Origin: Phycisphaerae bacterium
Lineage (GTDB): Bacteria; Planctomycetota; Phycisphaerae; UBA1845
Length of the DNA: 56,877 nt
Assembly (NCBI GenBank): GCA_040235375.1
Contig: JBECKQ010000318.1
Coordinates: 1-56,877, forward strand
Direction of reading: 5' to 3'
How positions within the stretch are numbered: position 1 is the first letter of the stretch; the number at the start of each line of letters is the position of its first letter. Positions 5,692 to 56,877 of the stretch are shown here, piece after piece. The position numbers were made by a program, and so were the translations under genes. The notes below the pieces were generated by a model that was not told the DNA's origin, did not search any database, and worked only from the letters and a program-made list of their open reading frames with translations.

Positions 5692-5702
5692 CACGGCGGA
5701 TT

Positions 5703-8276
5703 TTAGGTGCCAGAGTGCATGATGGTCAACAACGACTGCCACCACGGCGGGCCCACTGGCAAAGCAGTAACGTAAGGGTAGATCAGCGCGAACGCGATTC
5801 CGGCGACAATCAGCAATTCCGTGACGCCGCGCTTCAGCCTGGCGGTAATGACCACCCAGGCGAGCGCGATGTAGAGGAATGAAAGTGACGGCAGATAGTG
5901 GTAGATGAACATGATCCGCGGTGACGCCAGCCACGGCGCCCAGAACGCCAGATAGCCGGCCAGGAGCGGCAAAGCGCGCTGCTCGCGCCGCAGCGCCACC
6001 TGCAGCGCGGCAAACCCGATCGCCGCCAGGCCCGCCAGCCAGATGATGGGGTTGCCCATTGCATAGACGTTGGAACGGGGAGGGGTGTTGGACGCCGTCT
6101 CGCCATGGGCCGTCTTGGCCGGCGGGGTCTTCTCGGCGTACAGCCACATCATCTTGCTGTAGAGCGGCCACTCCGCCGCTTTGGAGCTGTAGGGGTGCGG
6201 CTGCGTCAGTCCCGTGTGGTACGACCACATCTGCACCTGCAGCTCCTTGAACTGGTCGATGGAGTAGCCGGCCCGGAAGAACGGCGTGTAAGAGAGCAGG
6301 TAGATGCCGGCGGGTAGCAACGCATAGGAGATGACCATCAACGCGGGGCGTTTCGGCCAGAACCTTCCCTCCTGTTTGGCGCGGTACAGGTGAATGACGG
6401 CCATCAGCGGAAACGCGAAGAGCGCCGTCCACTTGCAGGCCAGCGCGCCGCCGACAGCGAACGCCGCCAGCACGTAGCGGTCGTACAACCCGGCCAGGAC
6501 GGCGGCCAGCAGGAAGGCCGCGCAGTAAATGTCGTTCATGCCGATACGCGACAGGACGAGCGGCAGCGTGTCGAGGCTGGCCAGCGCCGCAGCAAGCAGC
6601 GCAATGCTATAGCGGTCGAACAGGCGGAGCGATATCGCGTAGATCAGAAGAACGACGATCGTACCGAACAACGTCGCCGGCAGCCGCCACGCCCACGGCT
6701 TGTCCCCGAAGAGCTGAATGCTCCACTGCATGAAGAGCTTGGCGAGTGGCGGATGCGTCCACTCATAAGCCACGCCCTCGATCGGCGCGGACGTGGACCA
6801 GAGCCACGGGTCGGTGTTGCCCGCCGCCCATTGCTCGGCGGTGTAGGCGTGATACACCTCGTCGAAGTATCGCTCGGGCGGAGCGTTCAGCCGGAAAAGC
6901 CGCGTACCCAGGGCGAAAAGCAGGATGACTGCCAGCAGCAGCGGCGCACGTCGGCGAAGCCACGGCGGATCCGCGGGCGTCACGAGCGATTCGAGTTCAT
7001 GCTTGCCGATCTTCAGCTTCGAAACGAGTCGATCGAACCACTTCTGGCCGGTCGGCGTGACGGAGATCGCCGTCAGGGGAAGGGCCAGCAGATTGCCCAG
7101 ACACAGGGCCATGGCCAGCGCCCGGTGGATAAGCTGTTCCGACCCCACAAAGCTCAAGGCGAACACGAGATTACCGCAGTACGTTGCGGACGCGAGGACA
7201 TAGGGAACAAGCGCGGCGGTGTGACGAGCGGCGACGATGGCCAACGGCGCGAAAAACGGAAAGAGGTGACGCTCGTGGGCGCGGGTCACGAATAGAAACG
7301 TGATCAGGTAGGCGAGCGCCGTCGCTTCCCAAAGGGCGGTGTCGCCTTCGCGTCGCCAGCGTCGCCAGAGCCAGACCGCGGCGAAGAGATAGCCGACCAG
7401 GCAGATGGCGGTTCCTGCCTGATGCACCGTCACCGGGCCGATGATCCGGCCGCTGTCCGGTTTCCAATTCAGATCGAACATGTACCAGAGGTTCATCGCG
7501 TTGACCGAGGCGTACTGGTACTGGTTCATCGTGACGTCGATGCGGTGCTCGATGAACTGCGGAAGCGTGCGCAGACTGCCACCGTTAAACGGAAGAAACG
7601 TGGCGGCGAAGACGGCGACGGCGATGCCGGCCGATGCCGCAATGCGGTGCCATCGAATACGGGCTCGCGCCGCGTAGATGAGCACCAGCGGTACGACGAC
7701 GGCCGTGTGCGGCTTGACCGCTCCGGCCAGGCCGAGAACGAGCGCCGACAGCAGCGCTCGGCGCGATACGAGCAGCGAAAGTGCGGCGACCAGCAGAAAG
7801 GCGTGAAAGCTGTCCGCCTGTCCCCACAGCGTCGAGTTCGCGAAGACCGCGGGGTTGAATATGTAGATGGCCGGCACCCAGAGCCGCTGGTGCTCCGCCA
7901 TCGGTCGGGCCATGCGCCAGATGAGGAAAGCGGTGGCGATGTCCGCCGCGATATTGGGCAGCTTGAACAGCAGGTACACGAGTCCGTGGGGCAGCTTCGC
8001 GTACACGGCGCCGAGAGGCCAGAGGACGTAAAGATAGCCAGGCAGGTAGTCGCACCAGTACTTTCCGTCCCAGAAGTGCTGAAGGCCTACGTCCGCGAGG
8101 TGCTGGGCCCAGCCCGTGAATGCGCCCATGTCCGAGGCGTGGCCGGTCCAGGGGGCGGCGACGATGCGGACGGCCAGACCTGCCAGAGCGAGGGGGATGA
8201 ACGCGCGCCACGTTACGGCGCTGCCGCTGGAGTTGTCTCGGATGAGGAGGGCCGCCTGATGGCCGGCTTTCGTCAT
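5703..8276 (-). CDS. fused double GT-C glycosyltransferase: N-terminal GT87/ALG6-like domain plus C-terminal protein O-mannosyltransferase (PMT/GT39)-like domain
   Basis: N-half WCDYLPGYLYVLW, WGQADS, HERHLFP; C-half YFDEVYHA, HPPLAK, HPYSS.A.EWPL, GNPIIW, FIYHYLP; highly hydrophobic. Confidence 0.85.
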   Translation of the reverse strand: MTKAGHQAALLIRDNSSGSAVTWRAFIPLALAGLAVRIVAAPWTGHASDMGAFTGWAQHLADVGLQHFWDGKYWCDYLPGYLYVLWPLGAVYAKLPHGLVYLLFKLPNIAADIATAFLIWRMARPMAEHQRLWVPAIYIFNPAVFANSTLWGQADSFHAFLLVAALSLLVSRRALLSALVLGLAGAVKPHTAVVVPLVLIYAARARIRWHRIAASAGIAVAVFAATFLPFNGGSLRTLPQFIEHRIDVTMNQYQYASVNAMNLWYMFDLNWKPDSGRIIGPVTVHQAGTAICLVGYLFAAVWLWRRWRREGDTALWEATALAYLITFLFVTRAHERHLFPFFAPLAIVAARHTAALVPYVLASATYCGNLVFALSFVGSEQLIHRALAMALCLGNLLALPLTAISVTPTGQKWFDRLVSKLKIGKHELESLVTPADPPWLRRRAPLLLAVILLFALGTRLFRLNAPPERYFDEVYHAYTAEQWAAGNTDPWLWSTSAPIEGVAYEWTHPPLAKLFMQWSIQLFGDKPWAWRLPATLFGTIVVLLIYAISLRLFDRYSIALLAAALASLDTLPLVLSRIGMNDIYCAAFLLAAVLAGLYDRYVLAAFAVGGALACKWTALFAFPLMAVIHLYRAKQEGRFWPKRPALMVISYALLPAGIYLLSYTPFFRAGYSIDQFKELQVQMWSYHTGLTQPHPYSSKAAEWPLYSKMMWLYAEKTPPAKTAHGETASNTPPRSNVYAMGNPIIWLAGLAAIGFAALQVALRREQRALPLLAGYLAFWAPWLASPRIMFIYHYLPSLSFLYIALAWVVITARLKRGVTELLIVAGIAFALIYPYVTALPVGPPWWQSLLTIMHSGT

Positions 8277-42397: not shown

Positions 42398-42701
42398 GTC
42401 GGGGTGGACGTAGCACATCGTGTTCCGCATATAAATTACATCGAACGACAAACTCACGCAACAAAATACTGCTGCCCGAATTTTCTTTTATCAGCTGCGC
42501 GCCCCCACCACCTCAGCGCTCGATTGACCAGGGAACCCGGTTTCCCAACACTGACACCCGCAACACTGGCGGGCTCCTAGATGTACGTATTATGTTCGCA
42601 TCGACATGGTCCAACGCCGGTCGGCCCCGCTTTGCGCTCCCCCGCCGCCCACTATAATCCGCGACAGGAGAGGTCCCATCGTGAAACTCGGGCGACACTA
42701 A

Positions 42702-44513
42702 ATGGACAACCTGCGGCATCTGGTGAGCACCCGGCTGCTTCCGTGCGTTCAGACCCCTGGTCAGTACGTGGGCGGCGAAACGAACCAGCTCCCGAAGGCG
42801 GGCGACTGGGAGGTGGCCGACGTGCGCGTGGTCGTCGCCTTTCCCGACACCTACCAGATCGGGATGAGCCATCTCGGCTGCCAGATCATCTACTGGCTCT
42901 GCAACCACACGCCCGGCGTTACCGCCGAACGGGTCTACTCGCCATGGGTGGACGCCGAGCAGGTCATGCGTCGCGCGAAAATCCCCATGTTCACATGGGA
43001 CACGCGCCGCAAGGTTGCCGAGGCGGACATCCTGGCGATCTCGCTCCAGTACGAAATGGCCTACACGAACATCCTGACGATTCTCGATCTGGCCGGCATC
43101 CCGTTTCGTTCCGCCGATCGAGACGACTCCCACCCCCTGGTCATTGCCGGCGGGCCCCAGGCGGACAGTCCGGAACCCATGGCGGAATTTCTCGACGTGA
43201 TCGTGCTCGGGGACGGCGAGGAATCGATGTCGGCGATTCTGGCCGCCTACCGGGAGCTGAAAGCGGGTGGAGCCGGCCGACGGGAGATGCTCCGCCACCT
43301 CGCGACGCACTTTCCCTGGGCGTATGTCCCGTCGCTCTATAACGTCTCCTACAACACCGATGGCACCGTGGCGGCGGTCACGCCGCGCCACGACGACGTA
43401 CCCTCGCGGATCGTGCGCTGCCGGACGCCTGATCTCGAAGCCGCGCCGTTTCCCGTTCGTCCACTCGTGCCCAACGTGAGGGTTGTGCATGATCGCATCT
43501 CGATCGAGATCATGCGCGGCTGCCCCCAGCGCTGCCGTTTCTGCCACGCCGGTTACACGAAACGGCCGATCAGCCGGCGGACCGTGAACAACATCATTGA
43601 CGTCGCCGAGCAGGCCTACCGCGCAACCGGCAACGAGGAGATCGGTTTGCTGTCGCTGTCGACGGCCGACTATCCATACCTGCCGGAGCTGTCGCGCCGA
43701 ATTCAGGAGCGCTTCGCCGGGCGCAACGTGAGCGTCTCCGTGCCATCGGTGCGCGTGGACAAAATGCTCGCGCACATTCCATGGATGGTGAACAGCGTGC
43801 GCAAGAGCGGCCTGACCCTCGCCGTCGAGGCGGCCCGCGACGACATGCGCGCCGCGATCCGGAAAGTCGTGACCGACGGCAACCTCCTTGACGGCGTTCA
43901 GCAGGTTTACGCCGCGGGCTGGAAGAGCCTGAAGCTGTACTTCCTCACCGGCTTTCCCGGCGAGCGCCCCGAAGATATCGACGGCATTTTCGAGATCAGC
44001 CGGAAGGTATCGGAGGCGCGCGTTCCGGTCGCCGGCCATCCGGCGGCGGTGAATTCGTCGGTTGGATGGCTGGTGCCCAAGGCTCACACGCCGATGCAGT
44101 GGGCGGCACAGCCCCGCGCGGCGTATTTCCGAGAAGTCAAGGATCGTTTGCTTACTCTCAAGCGATCGCAACGCTGCGCCGTGCGCATCAGCACGCACGA
44201 CGTGAATCGCTCCATCCTCGAGGCGGTCTTCGCACGGGGCGATCGCCGGCTGGCCCCTGTTATCGAGGCGGCCTGGCGGGCAGGTGCCCGTTTCGACGGC
44301 TGGGATGAGCAATTTGCCCCAGGCCTCTGGCAGAAGGCCTTCGAGCGCGCCGGCATCGACCCCGACTGGTATGCGCACCGCGAACGCGGCTACGACGAGG
44401 TGCTGCCGTGGGGCCACCTCGCCGGCGGCAACTCGGACGCCTATCTCCGGCGGCAGTACGACGACGTCTTCGTGCACATCAACGTGGACCGGCCCGAGAT
44501 CGCGTCCGCCTGA
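42702..44513 (+). CDS. B12-binding-domain radical SAM protein (TIGR03960-like)
   Basis: P.QY.GGE, FPDTY.IGMSHLG, RGCPQRCRFC, PK.HTP.QW and GARFDGW.E motifs. Confidence 0.9.
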   Translation: MDNLRHLVSTRLLPCVQTPGQYVGGETNQLPKAGDWEVADVRVVVAFPDTYQIGMSHLGCQIIYWLCNHTPGVTAERVYSPWVDAEQVMRRAKIPMFTWDTRRKVAEADILAISLQYEMAYTNILTILDLAGIPFRSADRDDSHPLVIAGGPQADSPEPMAEFLDVIVLGDGEESMSAILAAYRELKAGGAGRREMLRHLATHFPWAYVPSLYNVSYNTDGTVAAVTPRHDDVPSRIVRCRTPDLEAAPFPVRPLVPNVRVVHDRISIEIMRGCPQRCRFCHAGYTKRPISRRTVNNIIDVAEQAYRATGNEEIGLLSLSTADYPYLPELSRRIQERFAGRNVSVSVPSVRVDKMLAHIPWMVNSVRKSGLTLAVEAARDDMRAAIRKVVTDGNLLDGVQQVYAAGWKSLKLYFLTGFPGERPEDIDGIFEISRKVSEARVPVAGHPAAVNSSVGWLVPKAHTPMQWAAQPRAAYFREVKDRLLTLKRSQRCAVRISTHDVNRSILEAVFARGDRRLAPVIEAAWRAGARFDGWDEQFAPGLWQKAFERAGIDPDWYAHRERGYDEVLPWGHLAGGNSDAYLRRQYDDVFVHINVDRPEIASA

Positions 44514-44624
44514 GCAACCGAGCGACGGTTGAGCAACGGCGGCCGGGAGGATACACTCACACCCGCCACGAGAGAACGGTCCCGAAAACGGCATGACCTC
44601 ACACCCTTTTGCGGGCTCTGGAAA

Positions 44625-45650
44625 ATGACAAAACGAATTGCCTTGTTGTCGTGCCTGCTGTTGACTGCTTGCGGATGTCATGACAAGCAGTTCACGGCGA
44701 CCATCGTCAACCCGCTCAATCTGGATCTGCCGTTCCTGCCGCACCGCGATCCGGTTCGAGTGGGGATTGTCGAATGGGGCTCGTACCATGCGGACATGGC
44801 GGCATGGCAGGCGAACTCGCCGTGGACGCCATTCCGCCAGCGATTGCAACTCGCACTGGGCGTACCGGTGCAGATCGTCGAGGTGACGCCGTTCCAGGCT
44901 GCCGCCCATCTTCGCACAGGGCAGATCGATCTGACGTACATTCCCGCCGGCGCATACGTCGAAATGTCCGAGGAGGATCGTGCTGCCGGCAAAGCGCTGG
45001 CAGTGACCCAGCCGTTGATTCGCCAGGGGTTGATTGTGGCCGACTCCCGCTCCGACATCGCGCGCCTGGAGGACATCAAGGGCAAGCGGTTCTCTTTCGG
45101 GCCGCAGGACGACCCGGTGCTGGATGTCGCCGCCAAGAAGGCGCTGCAGGATGCCGGCGTTTCGCTGGATGACGTCCAGCGGGAGCTGTTTCCGCTACCC
45201 GGCTCGTTCCAACATCACACAAGCTCGCGCGCGTCCGCTTACCAGATTGTCTACGCCCTCACGACGCAGGTCGGCGTGATCGACAAGTCGGACTACGACG
45301 AATGGCCGGACAAGGCCGGCAGCGCCCTGTTGCGGCGTTTCTCCAAGGAGGATGTCCGCGTGCTGGGCGAGACCGAACGAATCAACGTGGCCCGCATACC
45401 CCAGGGCGTCTTCGTGATCTCCGGCGCGGAGAAGCCGGCGATGGCCGCGCAGATATCTGATTTCCTTCTGTCCGCGGGGGGCAAAGAGGCGAACCTGCTT
45501 AGTGCCATAGGAGTGGCTCGCTTCGATCCGCCTCCTGAAGATCTGCCCGCTCAACTGCGGCAGATGGCGGCAACCGACAACGGTCTGTGGACGCGGGCCA
45601 CGGACCAGTCCGGCGGCGCGGGCGACGAAGCCTCGCCGCCGCCAGAGTGA
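44625..45650 (+). CDS. phosphate/phosphonate-type (PhnD-like) substrate-binding lipoprotein
   Basis: Signal peptide with Cys; GLIV...SDI..LEDIKGKRFSFG motif. Confidence 0.7.
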   Translation: MTKRIALLSCLLLTACGCHDKQFTATIVNPLNLDLPFLPHRDPVRVGIVEWGSYHADMAAWQANSPWTPFRQRLQLALGVPVQIVEVTPFQAAAHLRTGQIDLTYIPAGAYVEMSEEDRAAGKALAVTQPLIRQGLIVADSRSDIARLEDIKGKRFSFGPQDDPVLDVAAKKALQDAGVSLDDVQRELFPLPGSFQHHTSSRASAYQIVYALTTQVGVIDKSDYDEWPDKAGSALLRRFSKEDVRVLGETERINVARIPQGVFVISGAEKPAMAAQISDFLLSAGGKEANLLSAIGVARFDPPPEDLPAQLRQMAATDNGLWTRATDQSGGAGDEASPPPE

Positions 45651-45684: not shown

Positions 45685-46851
45685 GTGACCAGTTTTCTTG
45701 TGCTCGGTGCAGGCCGGCAGGGAGCCGCTTGCGCGGCATTCCTGCTGGAGAACTTCACGGACACGCGTGTCGAGTTCGTTGATGCGGCGACAGACCGGCT
45801 CGACGCCGCGACCACGCTCCAGGCGGATTCGTCACGTGTCAGCACGCAGCTTCTGGGCGTGTCTCCCGTCACCGACGAGCTTCGCGCGATCATTGCCCGG
45901 GCGGACTGCGTGATCTCCAGCTTGCCGTTCTTTCTGAACGCGAGTTTGACGAAGGCGGCGATCGAGGCTCACCGGCCTTTCTGCGACCTCGGCGGCAACA
46001 TCGCCACCGCGCGCGCCCAACTCCACATGCACGCAGCCTGCCTCGAGGCGGGCGTGGCAATCATTCCGGACTGCGGTCTGGCGCCCGGTCTGATCAACGT
46101 TCTCGCCGAGTATTGGTCGAGCGAATGGGAGTACTCTGCCGTTCGCCTCTATTGCGGCGGCCTTCCTCAGAATCCGACGGGATCGCTGAAGTATCAATTG
46201 ACGTTCAGCGTTTACGGCCTGCTCAACGAATACCTCGAAGACTGCGAAGTCTCGCGCGGTGGAAAGCTGATGACCGTGCCCGGATTGAGTGGCCTCGAGC
46301 CGCTCGGCGATCTGGCCTTTCCCGGGGCGTTCGAGGCCTTCTCGACGAGCGGCGGGGCATCGCTCGGCCCGCAAGTCTACGCGCCGCGCGGCGTCGACTA
46401 CGAGTACAAGACCATTCGCTATCCCGGTCACTGCCGGATCATGCGGGCGATGCGGGAAATGGGTCTGTTCGATGAGACGCCGCGCCCCGTGTCGCTCGAC
46501 GGCCGGCGTGTCACACTCAGCCCGCGCGCCGTCGTCGGGCCGGTCATGGAAGCCTCGCTTCGCGCCGACGGCCGCGACCTCGTTGTGGCCCGCGTCAATG
46601 TCCGCGGCAGGATCGACGGCCAGCCCGCTGTCGGCCGGATCGACCTTCTCGATTACGCCGTCGATCGCTTCACGGCCATGGAGCGCACGACCGGCTTTGC
46701 CACCGGCGTCGTCGCCGCGGCGCTGGCCGGCCTCTACGACCGGAAGATCGAGCCCGGCGCCTATGTTCCCTTCCAGGTCATCGACCCCAAGCTCATGATC
46801 GCGGAGCTCGGCCGCGCCGGCATCTCGGGCATCTCCGTGCGGTTGGAGTAG
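45685..46851 (+). CDS. saccharopine dehydrogenase / lysine 6-dehydrogenase family oxidoreductase
   Basis: GAGRQG Rossmann motif, CDLGGN, DCGLAPG, GGLPQ.P, YKTIRYPGH and AMERTTGF motifs. Confidence 0.9.
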   Translation: MTSFLVLGAGRQGAACAAFLLENFTDTRVEFVDAATDRLDAATTLQADSSRVSTQLLGVSPVTDELRAIIARADCVISSLPFFLNASLTKAAIEAHRPFCDLGGNIATARAQLHMHAACLEAGVAIIPDCGLAPGLINVLAEYWSSEWEYSAVRLYCGGLPQNPTGSLKYQLTFSVYGLLNEYLEDCEVSRGGKLMTVPGLSGLEPLGDLAFPGAFEAFSTSGGASLGPQVYAPRGVDYEYKTIRYPGHCRIMRAMREMGLFDETPRPVSLDGRRVTLSPRAVVGPVMEASLRADGRDLVVARVNVRGRIDGQPAVGRIDLLDYAVDRFTAMERTTGFATGVVAAALAGLYDRKIEPGAYVPFQVIDPKLMIAELGRAGISGISVRLE

Positions 46852-46852
46852 T

Positions 46853-47521
46853 TCAGAGGCCGCCGTCGTGGCGGAAGCGTTCGAGCGGGCAGCCTTCGCA
46901 GACGGCCTGCCCGCGGCAATGCCGCTTCGCCAGCTCGACGAGAAGGGCGTGGCACTCGTTGTAGGTCTGCACGTCGGCCGGCAACGCCGCTTCGAAGAGC
47001 GCCTTCACATCGGCATAGAAGGCGACACCGTCGATGATGTAGTGCCGGCGCAGGACGCGCCGCGTGTACGCATCCACAACAAAGCTACGCCGCCCCCCGG
47101 CGTAGAGGAGTATCGCGTCCGCCGTCTCGGGGCCGATTCCCGGCAGGGCGAGCAGCTCGCGCCGGACTGCCGACAGATCGCCGGACAACGCGCGCGCCAG
47201 ATCGCCGTCGTGTCGATCCACGAGCCACTGCGCGAACGCCTGGAGACGTCGCGCCTTCACTCGGTATGTGCCCGCCGAGCGGATCATCTCGGCCAGCTTG
47301 TGCGTGTTCATGGCGGCGATGCGCCGCAAGTCGAGGCACCGCGAATTCTTCAGTGATGCAATCGCCTTTTCAACGTTGGTCCACGCGGTGTTCTGCGTCA
47401 GGATCGCGCCGACGACGACTTCCTGGGGCGAGTCCGCCGGCCACCAGTTCTGCGGACCGTACGCCGCGTGAAGCTCGTCGTAGAACGTGCGCAACAGATT
47501 CGTGACGTCTGTTTCGCTCAT
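46853..47521 (-). CDS. HhH-GPD base-excision DNA glycosylase (endonuclease III-related)
   Basis: WWP, GAILTQNT.W.NV, LPGIGPETAD.ILLYA and VVDAYTRR motifs. Confidence 0.9.
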   Translation of the reverse strand: MSETDVTNLLRTFYDELHAAYGPQNWWPADSPQEVVVGAILTQNTAWTNVEKAIASLKNSRCLDLRRIAAMNTHKLAEMIRSAGTYRVKARRLQAFAQWLVDRHDGDLARALSGDLSAVRRELLALPGIGPETADAILLYAGGRRSFVVDAYTRRVLRRHYIIDGVAFYADVKALFEAALPADVQTYNECHALLVELAKRHCRGQAVCEGCPLERFRHDGGL

Positions 47522-47582
47522 GAAGAATCGTCTCGACGAATCGCTTGCATGCCGGCTCGATCGTCGCCACCATATAACGGCG

Positions 47583-48356
47583 ATGGCGAACTCACGGAAG
47601 AGCAAGCCCAAGCCCGCGCGGAGCGCGGCGCCGTCGACCGCTCGTTCCCTGCTCGAGCTGCAGCCGGAGCGTCTCTTGAGCAAGCCGCTCGAGGCGCTCG
47701 TTTTCCTGCTGCCGCTGATTCTATTCTACGAGATCGGCTGCCTTTTCCTTCAACCTGCGGACGTGGGCGGGGCGTCACAGGACCGCGTGGTCGCGTTCCA
47801 CCTTCTTCAGCTGTTTTTCCGGTTGTTCGGCTCCACCGGCGTGTGGATGCCCGGGCTGGCCGTCATCGTGATACTCTTGTGCACGCACGTGGCGAGCCGG
47901 CAACCCTGGCGCATCCGGCAGCGGACCGTGGCCATCATGTATCTCGAGTCGGTGCTGCTGGCCGTCCCGCTGTTGATGTTCAACCAACTGTTGCGCTCGA
48001 CGACGGCGTGCGGGCCGGCGGAAGGCTCGGTTTGGGTCGATGTCGTGCTCGGCGTGGGGGCAGGCGTCTACGAGGAACTCGTCTTCCGCTTGATCTTCAT
48101 CTCCCTGATCGTGATCGTGGGGACCGATCTCCTGCGGTTGCCGAACTCCGTGACCCTCGGGTCGGCGGTGGTGCTGTCCTCTTTGGCGTTCGCCGCGCAC
48201 CATCATCCGCCGTTGGGCAGTGAACCGTTTTCGTTCGACATCTTTGCGTTCCGCGCGCTGGCCGGCGGCTACCTGGCGATTCTTTTTGTCTGCCGCGGCT
48301 ACGGCCCCGCGGCCGGCACGCACGCTGCTTACAACATCCTCGTCGCGCTGGCATAA
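47583..48356 (+). CDS. CPBP family intramembrane glutamic endopeptidase (CAAX type II)
   Basis: EELVFR (EExxxR), FAAHH (FxxxH) and HAAYN (HxxxN) motifs, multi-TM. Confidence 0.9.
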   Translation: MANSRKSKPKPARSAAPSTARSLLELQPERLLSKPLEALVFLLPLILFYEIGCLFLQPADVGGASQDRVVAFHLLQLFFRLFGSTGVWMPGLAVIVILLCTHVASRQPWRIRQRTVAIMYLESVLLAVPLLMFNQLLRSTTACGPAEGSVWVDVVLGVGAGVYEELVFRLIFISLIVIVGTDLLRLPNSVTLGSAVVLSSLAFAAHHHPPLGSEPFSFDIFAFRALAGGYLAILFVCRGYGPAAGTHAAYNILVALA

Positions 48357-48449
48357 CAGAGGTCTGACCTGTTTGACAGTGTCTCACGGCGTCGCTAGAA
48401 CCCGCGGCGGCGCTAGTCGAGTGGAAGGAAGGAGTGGTGGGCGGCGCGG

Positions 48450-50705
48450 ATGTTTGAACGACTGGGACGAGCGGTGGGCGCGGCCCCTGTTCGGTGGGTG
48501 GCCGGATGGGTCGCGGCCAGCGCCCTGCTGATCATCCTTTCGCCATCCGCCAGGAACCTGACCGAGGCCGAGCCTCGCTCTCTCCTTCCCGCCGACCAGC
48601 CCTACAACCGGGCGATCGAATTCGAACGTCGGGCATTCCCCGATCTCGCGTACCGCACGCGGACCGTCCTCGTCTTCGAGCGCACGCCGAAGCTCACGTC
48701 CGACGACGATCGGTATCTCGCCGACCTGTCGCAGCAGCTCACCACGGAATGCGGTCAGCGAGAAGGCTGGTCGGTTCGGTCACCGTACCTTCAGCCGTAC
48801 CTCGCCAGCCGACTTGAATCGGCCGACGGCGCCGCGGCGATGATCATCGTCAATTCAAACAGCAACTACCTCACGAATCGGTCCGTGGTGGCGGTCGGAG
48901 CCATCGAGAAGCTCGTAAAAAAAGACCTGCCCGCCGGGCTGACGTTCGAAGTCACCGGCGAGGGCGGACTGGGGCGCGATCTCGCGGAGGCGACGGAGCA
49001 AGCGTTCGATCGAACGACGCTGGTGACGCTGGCCGTGCTGATTGTCATTCTCGCCTTGGTCTACCGGGCTCCGCTCGCAGCGCTCGTTCCGCTCGTATCG
49101 ATCGGCACGAGCGTTCTCGTCGCGGTCATGCTGCTCAACCAGGCGACCCGCCTCGGCTGGGGCATCAGCACGATAGAGAAGACGATCACCGTCGTGCTCG
49201 TCTTCGGCTCGGGCACGGACTACGCACTGTTCTGGCTCTCCGCGTTTCGAGAGCGCCTGGGTGCCGGCGGCGAGCGTGAGGACCGGCGGCAGAGGCGCCG
49301 AGTGGCGGCAGCCCGGGCGACGGTGCAGGCCGGCCCCGGCATCCTGACCAGTGCCGCCACCACCATCGGCGGGCTGATGATGCTGATGGCCGCCAATCTG
49401 CTGCCGTCCTTCAACGCCGGCCGCGCTCTGGGCATCGCACTCACCGTTTCGTTGATCGCGGCGTTGACGCTCGTGCCCGCAGTGGCCCTCCTGATGGGCA
49501 GCGTGCTGTACTGGCCGCGCCGCGAGAGCGAGCCGGACCCGAGCCACCGTTCCGGCGTTTGGGCTCGGCTGGCCGGGGTGATCGTCCGGCGGCCGGCCGC
49601 GGTGACCGCCGGCGTCCTCATCGTGCTGGCCTGGCCGATGTACGACGGATGGAACGCACACTACACGTACGATGCCCTCGGTGTCGTGCCGGCCAACAGC
49701 GGCTCCGAACGCGGACAGCAGATCGTTCGCGAGCACTTCTCCGCCGATCAGATCTTCTCCTGGACGGCACTCGTGCAGACCAGCAGGATCAGGACCGACG
49801 CCGAGACGGCGAAAGAGTTCTCCCAACGCGTGACGGCGAAGTGCCTTTCCGTTCCCGGCGTGGCGGACATCTGGAGCGTCAGCGATCCGCTGGGCACGAA
49901 GGTGTCTGCGGCCATGCAGGCGCTGCTGGCCACTTCCGCTGGGCAAGCCCGCGCCGAACAGGCGTACGTCTCATCGAAGCCCCCCGCGCTTCGCTTCGAG
50001 ATCATGCTCGAGTATCCGCCGCTCTCCGGCGATGCGATGGAATCGTGCCTTACGGTGCGCCAGCGCATCGAGTCGCTGGCGAAGGAGTGGTTCGGCAAGG
50101 CGTCGCAGGTTCACGCCACCGGCCTGACTCCGTACATCCTCAACATCAAACGTGTCGCGGACCGGGACCATCGGCGTGTGGTCGTGCTCGTCGTGGTGGT
50201 GATTTTCCTTATCGTCCTGGCGCTCGTGCGCCGGATCGTTTTGGCGGCAATCATGCTGGCCGCGACCATCATGATCTATCTGGTGACACTGGGCGTCACC
50301 GAGGCGTACTTCGTGTACGTCGTCGGCGAGCCCGGCATTGACTGGAAGGTCCGGCTGTTCTCATTCGTGGTCCTCGTGGCCGTCGGGCAGGATTACAACG
50401 TATTCCTTATCACCCGGCTGCTTCAGGAGCGTGCCCGGCACAGGGAGAAGGAGGCGACGCGGCGGGCGATCGCCGCCACCGGGTCCGTCATCAGCAGTTG
50501 CGGGCTGATCATGGCGGCCACGCTGGGGTCGCTGGCCGTCACCGGTCTGACGTTCTTCCAGGAGCTGGGCATGGCCTTCGCCTTCGGCGTGCTCCTGGAT
50601 ACGTTCCTGGTTCGGCCGGCGTTCGTGCCGGCCACCTATCTCCTCATTCACGGACGTGAAAGGAGCGGCGAGCCACCCGGCGCCCGTGGCGATCGATCGC
50701 CGTAA
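48450..50705 (+). CDS. MMPL family (RND superfamily) transporter
   Basis: Two repeats of TM, periplasmic loop and 5 TM; FGSGTDYALF, AVGQDYNVFLITR and LDTFLVRP motifs. Confidence 0.92.
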   Translation: MFERLGRAVGAAPVRWVAGWVAASALLIILSPSARNLTEAEPRSLLPADQPYNRAIEFERRAFPDLAYRTRTVLVFERTPKLTSDDDRYLADLSQQLTTECGQREGWSVRSPYLQPYLASRLESADGAAAMIIVNSNSNYLTNRSVVAVGAIEKLVKKDLPAGLTFEVTGEGGLGRDLAEATEQAFDRTTLVTLAVLIVILALVYRAPLAALVPLVSIGTSVLVAVMLLNQATRLGWGISTIEKTITVVLVFGSGTDYALFWLSAFRERLGAGGEREDRRQRRRVAAARATVQAGPGILTSAATTIGGLMMLMAANLLPSFNAGRALGIALTVSLIAALTLVPAVALLMGSVLYWPRRESEPDPSHRSGVWARLAGVIVRRPAAVTAGVLIVLAWPMYDGWNAHYTYDALGVVPANSGSERGQQIVREHFSADQIFSWTALVQTSRIRTDAETAKEFSQRVTAKCLSVPGVADIWSVSDPLGTKVSAAMQALLATSAGQARAEQAYVSSKPPALRFEIMLEYPPLSGDAMESCLTVRQRIESLAKEWFGKASQVHATGLTPYILNIKRVADRDHRRVVVLVVVVIFLIVLALVRRIVLAAIMLAATIMIYLVTLGVTEAYFVYVVGEPGIDWKVRLFSFVVLVAVGQDYNVFLITRLLQERARHREKEATRRAIAATGSVISSCGLIMAATLGSLAVTGLTFFQELGMAFAFGVLLDTFLVRPAFVPATYLLIHGRERSGEPPGARGDRSP

Positions 50706-50816
50706 AAGTGGTTCGCCCTTGTGCAGAGCGCCGCCAGCGCAGATGATGGGAGAGCAGTTTCCTCCACGGCCGTCCAGCTGGCGGCCGGAGGCGATCTTGT
50801 CAGCGAGGGAAGAGCA

Positions 50817-51953
50817 ATGACGACTGACGATTTCGTGCCACGACGTGTCACCTGGTTTGTCGCCGCGCTCGCGGTATCGTCGCTCGCGCCGCCGGCCTTG
50901 GCCAAAGTGCATCGGATCACCGCGACCGTGGAAGCGACGGTGCGCGAGCTCATCGGGGGTCAGCCGGCGTCGCTCGACACGTCGTTCGACTCGTACCCCG
51001 AAACCGCGCCTGTTCTTCCGATGGAGGCCTTCGCCGGTCTCGGCGATTTCACCGGCGACCAGGACCTGCTCCAGGGCGCACGCAGCATCGCGGCGTTCGC
51101 CGATCCGACCCTTTCAACGGATCCGAATCCTGCCGAGTTCGGCCTCGAGCTGGCCAACTACTCGCGGGACGCGTCCACCAGTCACGAGTCGTTTGCCGAG
51201 ACGATCGAACGGCGAAGGATCTCTCTGGACGTGTCGGAGCTCGGCGCGTCCGCGTTCGCCGGCACCGTTGATGTTACGAGCTACGTATTCCTCTCCGGCG
51301 CCATTGTCATCTGGAGCGACGCGAGCCAGACCGATCTGACCGGCCTCGAGGCGACGTTCGCATTCACTGTGAGCAAAAACGACGCCGCCACGAACATCGA
51401 CACGAACGGCCCCGAAGTGCTGTTCGACACCGGGCTGACACTAACCGGTGGGCCGCAGGGCAGCGTTGGTACGGCTCCAACAGGGCCGATTGTTGCGCTC
51501 CTCGGCGGCCCCGAACTGCTGGACCTCGCCGGCGGCAGCGCCGACGCCGTCGCGGCGCTGAACAGTCTGGGCGAGGCCCACGTCGTCATCATTCCCGAGC
51601 AGACCCTGCCGTACACGTATCCAGGAACGGCCGGGGAGTCGTTCGAGTTGGTGGCCGATGTTCGTTGCACGGCGGTGAATCTTCCGGGCGGAACGGGCAT
51701 CGCCGTCGGGTTCGGACGTGAGCTGACTCTGCTCGCCCCCGCGCTTGCTGAGCCCCTGGGGCCGAAGATGGCTGGCCAAGTCCAGGAGGCGACCAACCGG
51801 GCCATCCAGCAGGCCGACCCACGGACGATCGCGGACGATTCGACGGCAGGGGGGCCGCTCTGTGGCTTGTTCGGCGCGGAGACGGCGTTCCTGGGCCTGA
51901 TGACGTTCGCGGGCGGTTTGTGGCGATGCCGGCGTCGCCGGTTGGGGCGCTGA
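50817..51953 (+). CDS. secreted acidic beta-rich protein with Cys-containing C-terminal sorting signal
   Basis: Signal peptide ending PALA-K; tail GGPLCGLFG + hydrophobic helix + RCRRRRLGR. Confidence 0.75.
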   Translation: MTTDDFVPRRVTWFVAALAVSSLAPPALAKVHRITATVEATVRELIGGQPASLDTSFDSYPETAPVLPMEAFAGLGDFTGDQDLLQGARSIAAFADPTLSTDPNPAEFGLELANYSRDASTSHESFAETIERRRISLDVSELGASAFAGTVDVTSYVFLSGAIVIWSDASQTDLTGLEATFAFTVSKNDAATNIDTNGPEVLFDTGLTLTGGPQGSVGTAPTGPIVALLGGPELLDLAGGSADAVAALNSLGEAHVVIIPEQTLPYTYPGTAGESFELVADVRCTAVNLPGGTGIAVGFGRELTLLAPALAEPLGPKMAGQVQEATNRAIQQADPRTIADDSTAGGPLCGLFGAETAFLGLMTFAGGLWRCRRRRLGR

Positions 51954-52148
51954 TCCCCCGACGCGACCGCAACGGCGTGCGGAGTCTCCCCGGTACGCCT
52001 ATAGGGACGCCGGCCGATTGACATGAAACGCTAAGCATCTATCCTGCAAGCCGATAGCTGCTGCCTGCCATCCTCCGCGGGGCGGCGGCACCACCGCTGG
52101 TACCGGGTGAGAAGTGCGGGCTCACCCAGGCTGGTTGGACGCAAAACG

Positions 52149-53093
52149 ATGATTGTCGATTGCCACACCCATATCTGGGACTCGCCCGGACAGCTTGGCC
52201 AACTTGCCCAATCCGTCCAGAGGCCTGTTCGCGTCCCTGCCCCCCTCGTGCGCCGGGCGCCGGAAGTAAACGCCGGCCGGGCCCGGCATCTGGCGGCCGC
52301 CCAGCATGTGGACGCGACAATCGTGCTGGGGTTCACGAGCCTCCGACTGGGGGCGGAAATCCCGAATGACGTAGTCGCCTCCTATGTCCGCTCCCATCCC
52401 GACAAGCTGATCGGTTTTGCGGGCATCGACCCCAGCAGGCCGGCGGAGGCCATCGCGGAGATGAGTCGGGCCCGCAAGGAACTGGGGATGAAGGGCATCA
52501 GCCTGTCGCCCGCCGCACAGGACGTTCACCCCTGTAGCAGCAATGCAGACCTGGTGTACGCCCAGGCGGCGGAATGGCGCATGCCCGTTCTGTTCCATCC
52601 CGGAATCCAGATTTCGCGCGAGTGCAAGCTCGAATACGCCCAACCCTTGCTGCTCGACGAGGTGGCCCGCGAGTATCCCTCGCTGAAGATCATCATCGCC
52701 CACCTCGGATATCCGTGGGTGGCCGAGACGCTTGTGCTGCTGGCCAAGCACGAAAACGTCTTCTCCGACATCAGTTGGCTGCTGCACCAGCCGTGGCAGG
52801 CCTACCAGGCGCTCTTGTCCGCCTACCAGTACGGGGTGGTCGACAAGATCGTCTTCGGCAGCGGCTTTCCTTACAACTCGCCCACCCAGAGCATCGAAAC
52901 GCTTTACAGCATCAATCATCTGTGTGCGGGCACGAATATGCCGCGAATTCCTCGCGAGGCCCTCCAGGGCATCGTCGAGTGCGACGCTTTGTCGCTTCTG
53001 GGCATTCCGCACACAGCCTCCACGAAGCCCGCGGCATCGGCCGGCACGCTGCTGGACGAAGATTCCGAGCTCGACGGCACTGACTTGGGCTGA
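52149..53093 (+). CDS. amidohydrolase family protein (Amidohydro_2)
   Basis: DCHTH, PVLFH.G, IIAHLG.PW, NVFSDIS and IVFGSGFP motifs. Confidence 0.9.
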   Translation: MIVDCHTHIWDSPGQLGQLAQSVQRPVRVPAPLVRRAPEVNAGRARHLAAAQHVDATIVLGFTSLRLGAEIPNDVVASYVRSHPDKLIGFAGIDPSRPAEAIAEMSRARKELGMKGISLSPAAQDVHPCSSNADLVYAQAAEWRMPVLFHPGIQISRECKLEYAQPLLLDEVAREYPSLKIIIAHLGYPWVAETLVLLAKHENVFSDISWLLHQPWQAYQALLSAYQYGVVDKIVFGSGFPYNSPTQSIETLYSINHLCAGTNMPRIPREALQGIVECDALSLLGIPHTASTKPAASAGTLLDEDSELDGTDLG

Positions 53094-55008: not shown

Positions 55009-55088
55009 AACAGCTACTCGATAAGCGATTGGGACGGCGGCAAAGGCTGGGCGCACGGTGTGCGTATCGGACTTTGCGGGGGCGCTCA

Positions 55089-56877
55089 TTGATTAACTTC
55101 GAGTCGGTGAAAGAAGAGATCCGCCAGCGGGTCGACCTGGTGGAGTTGGTGTCGGAGCACGTTGCCCTCAGACGGGCCGGCAAGGACTTTATCGGTCTGT
55201 GCCCCTTCCACAACGATAAGTCCCCGTCCCTTACCGTCAGCCCCTCGAAGAGCATCTTCAAGTGCTTCGCCTGCCAGGCGGGCGGGGACGTTTTCACCTT
55301 CGTGCAGATGCGCGAAGGTGTTTCCTTTGGCGAGGCAATGCGCCTCCTTGCCGACCGTGCGGGCGTCACGCTCACGCGGATGACGCGAGCGAAGTCGTCC
55401 GGACCGGACAAGGCTGATCTGGCCAAAGTCAACGGGTGGGCGGCGGAGACCTTCTGCCGAGCCCTCAGGGAGGCCCCGGGAGCAGAGGCCGCCAGGCGAT
55501 TCATTGCGGAGCGCGATCTTGCCGCGGAGGCCATCGCGCGTTTCCGCCTCGGATACGCCCCGGACAGCAGCGACTGGATTCTCGCTGCGGCCCGTCGGCG
55601 CGGCATCGATATTGCTCTGCTTCGCGAAGCCGGCCTCGTGCAGACCAGCAATGACGGCCGGCCCTACGGCGTGTTTCGCGAAAGGCTCATCTTCCCCATC
55701 ACCGACACGATGAACCGCGTGATCGGCTTCGGCGGCCGTACGCTCAAGGGGGACCGGGCGAAGTATCTCAACACTGCTCAGACCACCCTTTTTGACAAGG
55801 GCCGCAATCTCTACGGCCTCGATGTCGCCCGGCAGACAATGTCCGAATCTCGCCGCGTCATCGTCGTCGAGGGCTACACCGATTGCATCGCTGCCAGCCA
55901 GCACGGCTTCGTCAACACGGTGGCCACGCTCGGCACCGCATTGACCGACGATCAGGTTCGACTTTTGCGCCGCTGGTGCGATGAGCTCCTTCTCGTCTTC
56001 GACTCGGACGAAGCGGGAGCCAACGCCGCAGATCGCGGTCTGAGTGTCGCTCTGCGGCACAATTTATCGGTCAAAATCGCCAACGTCCCGGCCGGAAAGG
56101 ACCCCTGTGAGTTTCTCGGAAGTCACGGGGCCGAGGCGTTTTCCGCCGTGTTGAAGTCCGCGGCCGACGCGCTAGTATTCAAGTGGCGCCGCACCAGTGA
56201 GCGGTTTGCCACGGACTCTGGGCAGGGGAGGAGCGAGGCGATACGAGAATTTGTCGGTCTCATCGCCGGCATGATCCGGTATCGGACCGTCGATCCGATC
56301 CATCAAGGGCTGATTGTCAATCAGCTCGCATCGCTTCTGGCAATCCCGGCGACCGACGTCCACGGCCTGCTGCTGGCCGCGTCGCGCAAGGCAGCGGGCG
56401 GTCCGGCTCCTGCCGGCGGGTTCCCCCACGCCGCGGGTCGGGTCGAGACGCCTCCCGACGGTGAACAGTCGGCTTTGGTCGCCATTTTGGAAGTGCTTGT
56501 GAACGAGCCCGCATTGTATGGGCAGATTGCCGACGCGTTCCGACACGAACGATTCGCCGATGAGCGGCTTCGCCGTATCGCCGGGCGTGTTGTCGACCTC
56601 TGTCGCGAGGCCACCGCCTTCACCGCGACGGAACTGCTGGACGGTTTCGAGGACCCCGCCGAGGCGGGTATCGTCACCGACCTGATCGTCCGCGGCGAAC
56701 GACAAGGTGAATTCGAAGCCACGCTGGCCGCCGCGCGGCAGCGCCTGGAGATGCTTGTCCCGCTGCGGGACGGACGCAGGGCGGCAGAGGATTTGCGGCG
56801 GGCAATGGCTCAGGGCCCCGTCGACTCCAACGAGGAGACGGAGAGCCTGCGACGGATCAGTCGCGCTCTTTCCGGGT
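55089..56877 (+). CDS. dnaG: DNA primase (3' truncated by window edge)
   Basis: Frame from TTG 55089 reads ...GLCPFHNDKSPS...FKCFAC (CHC2 finger), IGFGGR, KYLNT, VEGYTD, TLGTAL, FDSDEAG and KDP; missing from the ORF track because no stop lies inside the window. Confidence 0.97.
   Translation, partial: MINFESVKEEIRQRVDLVELVSEHVALRRAGKDFIGLCPFHNDKSPSLTVSPSKSIFKCFACQAGGDVFTFVQMREGVSFGEAMRLLADRAGVTLTRMTRAKSSGPDKADLAKVNGWAAETFCRALREAPGAEAARRFIAERDLAAEAIARFRLGYAPDSSDWILAAARRRGIDIALLREAGLVQTSNDGRPYGVFRERLIFPITDTMNRVIGFGGRTLKGDRAKYLNTAQTTLFDKGRNLYGLDVARQTMSESRRVIVVEGYTDCIAASQHGFVNTVATLGTALTDDQVRLLRRWCDELLLVFDSDEAGANAADRGLSVALRHNLSVKIANVPAGKDPCEFLGSHGAEAFSAVLKSAADALVFKWRRTSERFATDSGQGRSEAIREFVGLIAGMIRYRTVDPIHQGLIVNQLASLLAIPATDVHGLLLAASRKAAGGPAPAGGFPHAAGRVETPPDGEQSALVAILEVLVNEPALYGQIADAFRHERFADERLRRIAGRVVDLCREATAFTATELLDGFEDPAEAGIVTDLIVRGERQGEFEATLAAARQRLEMLVPLRDGRRAAEDLRRAMAQGPVDSNEETESLRRISRALSG

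Follow-up and report, generated by a model that had tools for sequence, protein, structure and literature searches.

The window analysed here, a 56,877-nucleotide stretch of DNA (contig JBECKQ010000318.1 of assembly GCA_040235375.1) from a Phycisphaerae bacterium of the phylum Planctomycetota, encodes a secreted protein of 378 amino acids, termed TAILP (50817..51953, + strand), that ends in a Cys-Gly tail. Its gene lies downstream of genes for a CPBP/Rce1-like glutamic intramembrane protease and an MMPL/RND-family transporter. An earlier sequence-only reading had proposed that these three genes form a protein-sorting system, in which the protease cleaves the tail and the transporter supplies a lipid anchor or exports the product. 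The tail has a tripartite layout, is conserved across a large protein family and recurs as a module on unrelated secreted proteins. The reading that we favour, and hold to be probable overall, is that TAILP is a tail-anchored secreted protein belonging to a family of proteins with Cys-Gly tails, that the cysteine of the tail is modified and the tail cleaved, and that the neighbouring CPBP protease is probably not the cognate enzyme.

A conserved Cys-Gly tail at the end of TAILP

The N-terminus of TAILP is hydrophobic and signal-like and ends in ALA, and the C-terminus (...GGPLCGLFGAETAFLGLMTFAGGLWRCRRRRLGR) runs from LCGLFGAE through a hydrophobic helix to the basic end RCRRRRLGR, as the sequence-only reading had described. 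The CGLFG signature (residues 349–353, followed by A-E) is encoded at 51861..51875, the hydrophobic helix (approximately residues 351–369; 351–376 in the AlphaFold2 model) at 51867..51923, and the basic end (residues 370–378) at 51924..51950, all on the + strand, with the limits of the helix and of the basic end read from the sequence. The protein therefore has the generic tripartite layout of a short signature, a hydrophobic helix and a C-terminal basic cluster, together with an N-terminal signal.

The analysis covered a sample of 341 genomes, comprising the source genome (labelled G000; a 5.2-Mb assembly in 482 contigs, 90.5% complete, in which the window is contig C74), 40 relatives from the same family and order, and 300 others from across the phylum. 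TAILP has a match in 28 of the 40 relatives, mostly as one copy per genome. A second, more distant copy, in which the tail region is kept, was seen on contig C366 of relative G022 (query residues 15–376 matched). When open reading frames (ORFs) were extracted from 20 TAILP loci, 19 proved to have the tail, with CG..G followed by a hydrophobic stretch and then a basic end. Locus L042 gave an ORF that did not finish in this way, probably owing to a frame problem, and it was left out later. In the resulting alignment of 20 sequences (TAILP of the window and 19 others), every N-terminus is hydrophobic, and C349, G350 and G353 are invariant at an overall identity to the query of 25–39%.

An exhaustive TAILP profile search returned 385 representative clusters at E ≤ 0.001, 308 of which scored at E ≤ 1e-30, and nearly all of these family clusters are 340–400 amino acids long and match end to end. 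CG..G occurs within the last 50 residues of 138 of the 153 family representatives, the other 15 having mostly a Cys variant or a shortened sequence, and at least two R/K are found among the last 12 residues of 148 of the 153. The family signature is L-C-G-[AL]-[LF]-G-x-E, with the Glu present in 112/136. Judged from these alignments, the conservation of the TAILP tail exceeds chance, which removes the earlier concern that the tail might be unique or unconserved. None of the Pfam or NCBIfam models fits the tail region of TAILP or of seven other tail carriers (E ≤ 1 to 10), and the last 51 residues of TAILP alone gave no match to a sorting-tail model, a result to be read with the proviso that HMMER filters may drop very weak tail-model matches. 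The NCBIfam sorting-tail models tested presumably include MYXO-CTERM.

The body of TAILP likewise has no Pfam or NCBIfam match, and a homologous-protein search returned four relatives only, without Pfam domains. The AlphaFold2 model (mean pLDDT 87.2, pTM 0.79) predicts an elongated β-sandwich (residues 30–300), helices at 306–341 that would form a stalk, a low-confidence linker around the Cys, and the terminal helix. A Foldseek search with this model gave matches of low template-modelling score only. With VIA-align, the best solved match was 8okh (Bd1399 from Bdellovibrio; Z 7.7, root-mean-square deviation 3.6, 149 residues aligned), followed by carbohydrate-binding-type β-sandwiches at Z ~5. 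Bd1399 is described as a secreted protein of unknown function (PMC10792529). A function for TAILP is not derivable from these fold matches. In a protein-feature search, TAILP fell next to a cluster of hypothetical planctomycete proteins (0.97) and, as a lead only, next to clusters about one-quarter PEP-CTERM-bearing (0.90). TAILP is a conserved, mostly single-copy secreted β-sandwich protein of a Phycisphaerae lineage.

The tail recurs on unrelated secreted proteins

Further carriers of the tail were found by scanning all ORF ends of the source genome and then by searching with a profile of eight tails. Eleven carriers were identified in this genome, namely TAILP and ten other, unrelated secreted proteins, whose Pfam content differs. 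One is a subtilase that also has PKD domains, others are a legume-lectin, an fn3/TSP3 and an InlB-repeat protein, and several have no Pfam match. A low-complexity linker precedes the tail in the carriers and is Pro/Thr-rich in at least three of them.

Among the 40 relatives, the eight-tail profile gave hits in 27 at E ≤ 0.01, a lower bound because many TAILP tails themselves score under that line. Across the phylum, a 27-tail profile, which is short and trained on this order and for which 24 candidates per genome were scored in the large tail searches, gave hits in 9 of the 300 genomes at E ≤ 0.001. On reading, the Cys-Gly tails are clear in seven of the nine (G071, G165, G182, G201, G283, G285 and G298; for example, GGGGCGAIGLEALLILGLL...RKR), and the hits of G080 and G297 are doubtful. 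All seven verified genomes belong to other planctomycete families. A near-invariant Cys in a conserved signature, carried by unrelated secreted proteins both here and in other families, bears out the view of the sequence-only reading that the motif, transmembrane segment and basic end form the layout of a sorting signal, and the profile counts supply the tally of paralogous tails that it had suggested. No description of a planctomycete Cys tail was found in the literature searched, which took in neither subscription journals nor the supplementary tables to the papers by Haft, where such genomes might be listed; in the Haft preprint, the strings 'Planctomyc' and 'MMPL' do not occur (10.1101/2023.06.07.544157).

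The adjacent CPBP protease is a phylum-wide housekeeping gene

The CPBP gene (47583..48356, +; 257 amino acids) matches PF02517 at 36.7 bits (cut-off 22.4), or 39.5 bits in the whole-genome search, and the MMPL gene (48450..50705, +; 751 amino acids) matches PF03176 at 308.7 bits. Together with TAILP, they lie on the + strand with gaps of 93 and 111 nucleotides (from the ORF list, with the reader's starts), and no terminator-like site was found in either gap. Both the identities of the protease and the transporter and the close, co-oriented arrangement of the three genes were therefore correctly recognized in the sequence-only reading. CPBP enzymes carry the catalytic motifs EExxxR, FxxxH and HxxxN/D, and across 18 orthologues of the window CPBP there is no variation at residues E164, E165, R169, F203, H207 and H247. 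Because the catalytic residues are kept, this protein is very likely an active glutamic intramembrane protease.

The distribution of the CPBP gene does not follow that of the tail. The window CPBP matched only itself in the source genome at E ≤ 0.001, and one orthologue, at 39–61% identity, is present in 38 of the 40 relatives. The gene occurs in all 26 high-quality genomes (the source genome included) and, at E ≤ 1e-10, in 149 of the 300 phylum genomes, usually full-length and single. In each of the 27 other genomes that have both CPBP and TAILP, the two genes are on separate contigs. Neighbourhoods were examined at 20 CPBP loci of relatives, each ~10 kb, and at 80 further loci from named metagenome-assembled genomes (Phycisphaerae, Sedimentisphaerales, Tepidisphaeraceae, Pirellulales and Planctomycetales), which were retrieved via CPBP alignment. 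Neither MMPL nor TAILP lies beside CPBP at any of the 20 or any of the 80; among the 80, one ORF of 105 amino acids has a weak tail-like end (E 0.13).

What does lie beside CPBP is a base-excision DNA glycosylase of the HhH-GPD type, encoded in the window at 46853..47683 on the − strand (PF00730, 62.2 bits), divergent from CPBP and with its true start probably at an internal Met near 47521. A glycosylase occupies the same divergent position in 16 of the 20 relatives' loci and 57 of the 80 others; it is the usual neighbour of CPBP and stands outside any sorting system. The divergent pair spans several orders, and there is no obvious reason for so long-lived a pairing of a protease with a DNA-repair gene.

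Only one of the seven verified tail genomes outside the family, G071, has a CPBP of the window type. A profile of the 18 orthologues was also searched; L052, L056 and L070 did not enter it, either on account of a stop codon or out of caution. It found nothing at E ≤ 0.01 in any of five tail-bearing genomes (G165, G285, G298, G182 and G283), whereas all five control genomes were matched at 1e-45 to 1e-62. In the opposite direction, a search with the tail profile gave no hit at E ≤ 0.1 in five of five CPBP-bearing genomes that are at least 99% complete. When the window CPBP was compared with NCBIfam, including the myxosortase models (Mrt_core NF040914, MrtX, MrtC, MrtP, MrtJ, MrtS and MrtA), no match was obtained at E ≤ 10 or E ≤ 1, and by these models it is not a myxosortase.

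These results show that the window CPBP is a phylum-wide housekeeping gene whose adjacency to TAILP is peculiar to the source genome and, for that reason, that it is probably not the cognate enzyme of the tail. The proposal that it is the tail protease is not supported, and the outcome that the sequence-only reading had itself set as a refutation was obtained: within the reach of the short tail model, the CPBP clade is widespread without such tails (149/300 compared with 9/300) and has no conserved synteny with them (0/27 shared contigs, 0/100 CPBP loci, 1/7 verified tail genomes).

Other candidate processing enzymes

The source genome has five CPBP paralogues, that of the window and those on contigs C307, C288, C469 and C201, and the four others match Mrt models, in every case under cut-off. 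The C201 paralogue is a PEP-CTERM-associated CAAX protein, above the cut-off of that model. The C307 paralogue scores 52.5 bits with MrtS, 52.3 with MrtJ and 42.7 with Mrt_core, all under cut-off (MrtJ 75, MrtS 130), and the remaining two give weaker core matches. The C307 paralogue has 360 amino acids and is encoded at 5027–6109 (−) of locus L015, where its neighbours are genes for a class I (Trp/Tyr-type) tRNA synthetase, IGPS, RNase E/G and ScpA. Its type occurs in 39 of the 40 relatives and, at E ≤ 1e-15, in 3 of the 300 phylum genomes, none of them tail-positive. This spread fits the order-centred spread of the tail better than that of the window CPBP does. Any order-specific gene would fit alike, however, so the C307 paralogue is the best but a weak candidate for the cognate protease.

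Gene neighbourhoods offered no guide to the enzyme and were set aside for this purpose: in the source genome, the window is the only contig on which a tail gene occurs together with a CPBP, exosortase or rhomboid gene, and the relatives have no tail match close to a CPBP of either type, the shortest distance on one contig being ~64 kb. The resemblance between the CPBPs of the outside tail genomes and the paralogues of the source genome is confined to the core domain, and orthologues could not be assigned. Rhomboids were rejected as well, because none of the three in the source genome scores above the rhombosortase cut-off (34.6 and 39.5 compared with 84 bits).

Two exosortases are present in the source genome. 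One, on contig C309 (L184, 5189–6241, −), is XrtA/XrtW-like. The other, on contig C127 (L183, 5069–6305, +), is short and XrtH-like (83.5 compared with 86 bits) and is followed by an XrtH-associated membrane protein (34.5 compared with 35 bits) and a type III polyketide synthase-like gene. XrtH is the partner of IPTL-type tails, and one IPTLSQWG tail (contig C375) was found alongside ~35 PEP-CTERM-like tails. With these PEP-CTERM-like tails and an exosortase present, the Cys-Gly tails are a second, separate set.

A partial pairing of MMPL and TAILP

The PF03176 match of the MMPL protein spans model positions 2–332 of 333, and its scores are under the cut-offs of the actII, HAE3, HpnN and MmpL3 models (42.5 compared with 1400 for MmpL3; 44.1 compared with 751.85 for HpnN). 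Matches at E ≤ 1e-60 were found in 15 of the 40 relatives, 11 of them at 40–54% identity. An MMPL gene lies directly 5′ of TAILP in G002, G013, G017 and G022 (4 of the 20 loci) and also in G033, which belongs to another GTDB family, giving 5 of the 28 other TAILP genomes, all of which were examined, and two families (f1 and f10). In G030, the MMPL gene (contig C23, bases 258–2432, −) lies ~257 bases from a contig end and TAILP (contig C293, bases 196–1275, +) starts 196 bases from a contig start; these facing ends fit an adjacency broken by assembly.

Both genes are present and apart in G026, G036 and G040, and in G028 and G038 MMPL was found but TAILP was not. Nine further MMPL loci have no tail-bearing ORF beside them. 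TAILP does not depend on MMPL for its existence, and in at least 19 genomes it occurs with no MMPL match at E ≤ 1e-60. The link to MMPL proposed in the sequence-only reading is weak, with adjacency in 5/28 other genomes; the two genes form a partial pairing only. The pairing may go back to a shared ancestral gene order, or the two genes may be loosely tied in function.

Proposed mechanism and alternative readings

By analogy with MYXO-CTERM, the most likely course for TAILP is one of Cys modification and cleavage. The protein would be exported by way of its N-terminal signal, presumably through Sec, and held in the cytoplasmic membrane by the C-terminal helix of its tail. The invariant Cys at the membrane face would then be modified, probably by lipidation as proposed for MYXO-CTERM, after which an intramembrane protease would remove the helix and the basic end, and TAILP would stay attached to the envelope through the modified Cys.

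Several points weigh against this favoured reading. The mechanism itself is drawn from analogy. Most other tails in the source genome do not have the Glu kept by TAILP tails, so the TAILP tail may be a sub-type. The best protease candidate, the C307 type, is under every myxosortase cut-off, gave no match at E ≤ 1e-15 in the seven verified outside tail genomes and has housekeeping genes as its only neighbours. As regards the window CPBP, the genomes that bear it may hide diverged tails, which could be missed because the tail profile is short and trained on this order. Within the order, CPBP and tails are both near-universal, and co-occurrence there therefore has no power to exclude the window CPBP. 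Finally, the adjacency in the source genome, uninterrupted by a terminator-like site, could still be functional in that genome.

An unlikely alternative is that the tail is a permanent membrane anchor whose helix is left uncleaved, with CGxxG serving helix packing, a disulfide or partner binding. No processing enzyme is tied to the tail by synteny or distribution, no rhomboid of the source genome exceeds the rhombosortase cut-off, and the conserved G-x-E at the start of the helix could be a site of partner contact. A simple anchor, however, would have no need of a near-invariant Cys at the membrane face, and TAILP falls beside PEP-CTERM protein clusters in the protein-feature search, albeit as a lead only. 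Moreover, the succession of motif, helix and Arg cluster after a low-complexity linker on unrelated secreted proteins is a hallmark of known sorting signals (10.1101/2023.06.07.544157).

The partial pairing with MMPL raises another possibility, which we also regard as improbable, that TAILP is an accessory of the transporter, a periplasm-facing β-sandwich beside the pump that aids the export of a lipid or polymer. The position of MMPL directly 5′ of TAILP in the source genome and five others, the facing contig ends of G030 and the resemblance of the predicted TAILP fold to carbohydrate-binding β-sandwiches would all be consistent with such a role. By contrast, the two genes lie apart in three genomes, MMPL occurs without TAILP in two, no tail gene was found beside the nine further MMPL loci, and TAILP is far commoner than MMPL (28 compared with 15 of the 40 relatives).

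A more elaborate version of the sorting-signal idea would give MMPL a part in it. The L-C-G-x-Φ-G-x-E tail, together with its helix and Arg-rich end, would be a new planctomycete sorting signal with TAILP as its most conserved client. The processing enzyme would be one that none of the recognized sortase, exosortase, rhombosortase and myxosortase models describes, and MMPL, found 5′ of TAILP in six genomes, would take part, for example by moving the lipid donor or the lipid-anchored product. We consider this full scheme improbable.

Very improbable is the remaining alternative, that TAILP and the tail family have the adjacent CPBP as their dedicated sorting protease, with MMPL either providing the lipid or exporting the product: the short, terminator-free gaps between co-oriented genes, the intact catalytic motifs, the five other genomes with MMPL next to TAILP and the processing of Cys-containing tails by CPBP enzymes (PMC11980579) speak for it, but they are opposed by the separate contigs and unconserved adjacency of CPBP and TAILP, the mismatch between CPBP and tail distributions, including the five tail genomes that are CPBP-negative with a working control, the failure to match any myxosortase model, the at least 19 TAILP genomes without an MMPL match and a rough estimate of ~5% for the chance that any tail–CPBP pair lies no more than two genes apart (11 tail, 5 CPBP and ~4,300 genes).

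Other features of the window

An Amidohydro_2 family gene (52107..53093, +; PF04909, 124.6 bits) lies 3′ of TAILP and is a frequent neighbour of it, adjoining it in 7 of the 20 relatives' loci. Near the end of the window, an ORF at 55029–56876 (+) continues past the window end and contains a zinc-finger motif of the CPFH..K.PS type; we take it to resemble DnaG primase. The sequence is 64% G+C, and antisense ORFs of up to 798 amino acids overlie real genes (for example, 42513–44909). A + strand ORF at 46799–47353 (stop to stop) lies over the glycosylase gene, and its apparent conservation in tblastn proved spurious by a strand check.

Significance

The choice of proteins that a bacterium shows on its surface is made by C-terminal sorting signals and, to our knowledge, the discovery of each new class of such signals has led on to the enzyme that processes it. 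In the Planctomycetota, the envelope is unusual and genetic tools are few. A Cys-Gly tail common to proteases, lectins and adhesin-like proteins would mark a planctomycete surface proteome and help to find the enzyme. The tail has the appearance of a new variant of sorting signal, and the system of CPBP, MMPL and substrate is unsupported as regards the protease and a partial pairing as regards MMPL. A plausible three-gene 'system' can be a juxtaposition in one genome, as shown here for CPBP, and the window CPBP, as a protease conserved across the phylum, is of interest in its own right.

Comparison with known sorting systems

The window MMPL shares its full-length architecture with the MMPL/RND lipid exporters MmpL3 and HpnN; unlike these, it is far under the corresponding equivalog cut-offs. 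With PEP-CTERM signals, the Cys-Gly tail has in common a similar length and layout, and the Glu just before the helix is common to TAILP tails; it differs in having a CGxxG signature instead of PEP and in matching no PEP-CTERM model.

In the Haft preprint, Cys-containing tripartite tails pair with CPBP-family proteases, some pairs having been recognized through gene neighbourhood (10.1101/2023.06.07.544157). Unlike in those pairs, the neighbourhood is unconserved here and the window CPBP matches none of MrtJ, MrtS and MrtA. Nor does the window CPBP follow the distribution of a cognate Cys tail, as a myxosortase would, being present in 149 of the 300 phylum genomes compared with 9 for the tails, within the limited reach of the tail model.

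The closest parallel is MYXO-CTERM. There, MrtX cleaves MYXO-CTERM in a Cys-dependent manner, lipidation by an Lgt-like enzyme is proposed and unproven, and MrtX is a housekeeping CPBP enzyme that is chromosomally unlinked to its substrates (PMC11980579). The present case differs in that no sorting-tail model matches the tail, no CPBP of the source genome reaches a myxosortase cut-off, the lineage is that of the Planctomycetota, and in TAILP tails the second residue past the last Gly is a conserved Glu. The likeness lies in the tail itself, which, as in MYXO-CTERM, is tripartite, consists of a Gly-rich signature that holds an invariant Cys (generic GCGC there, CGxxG here), a helix and an Arg cluster, and is found on many unrelated secreted proteins.

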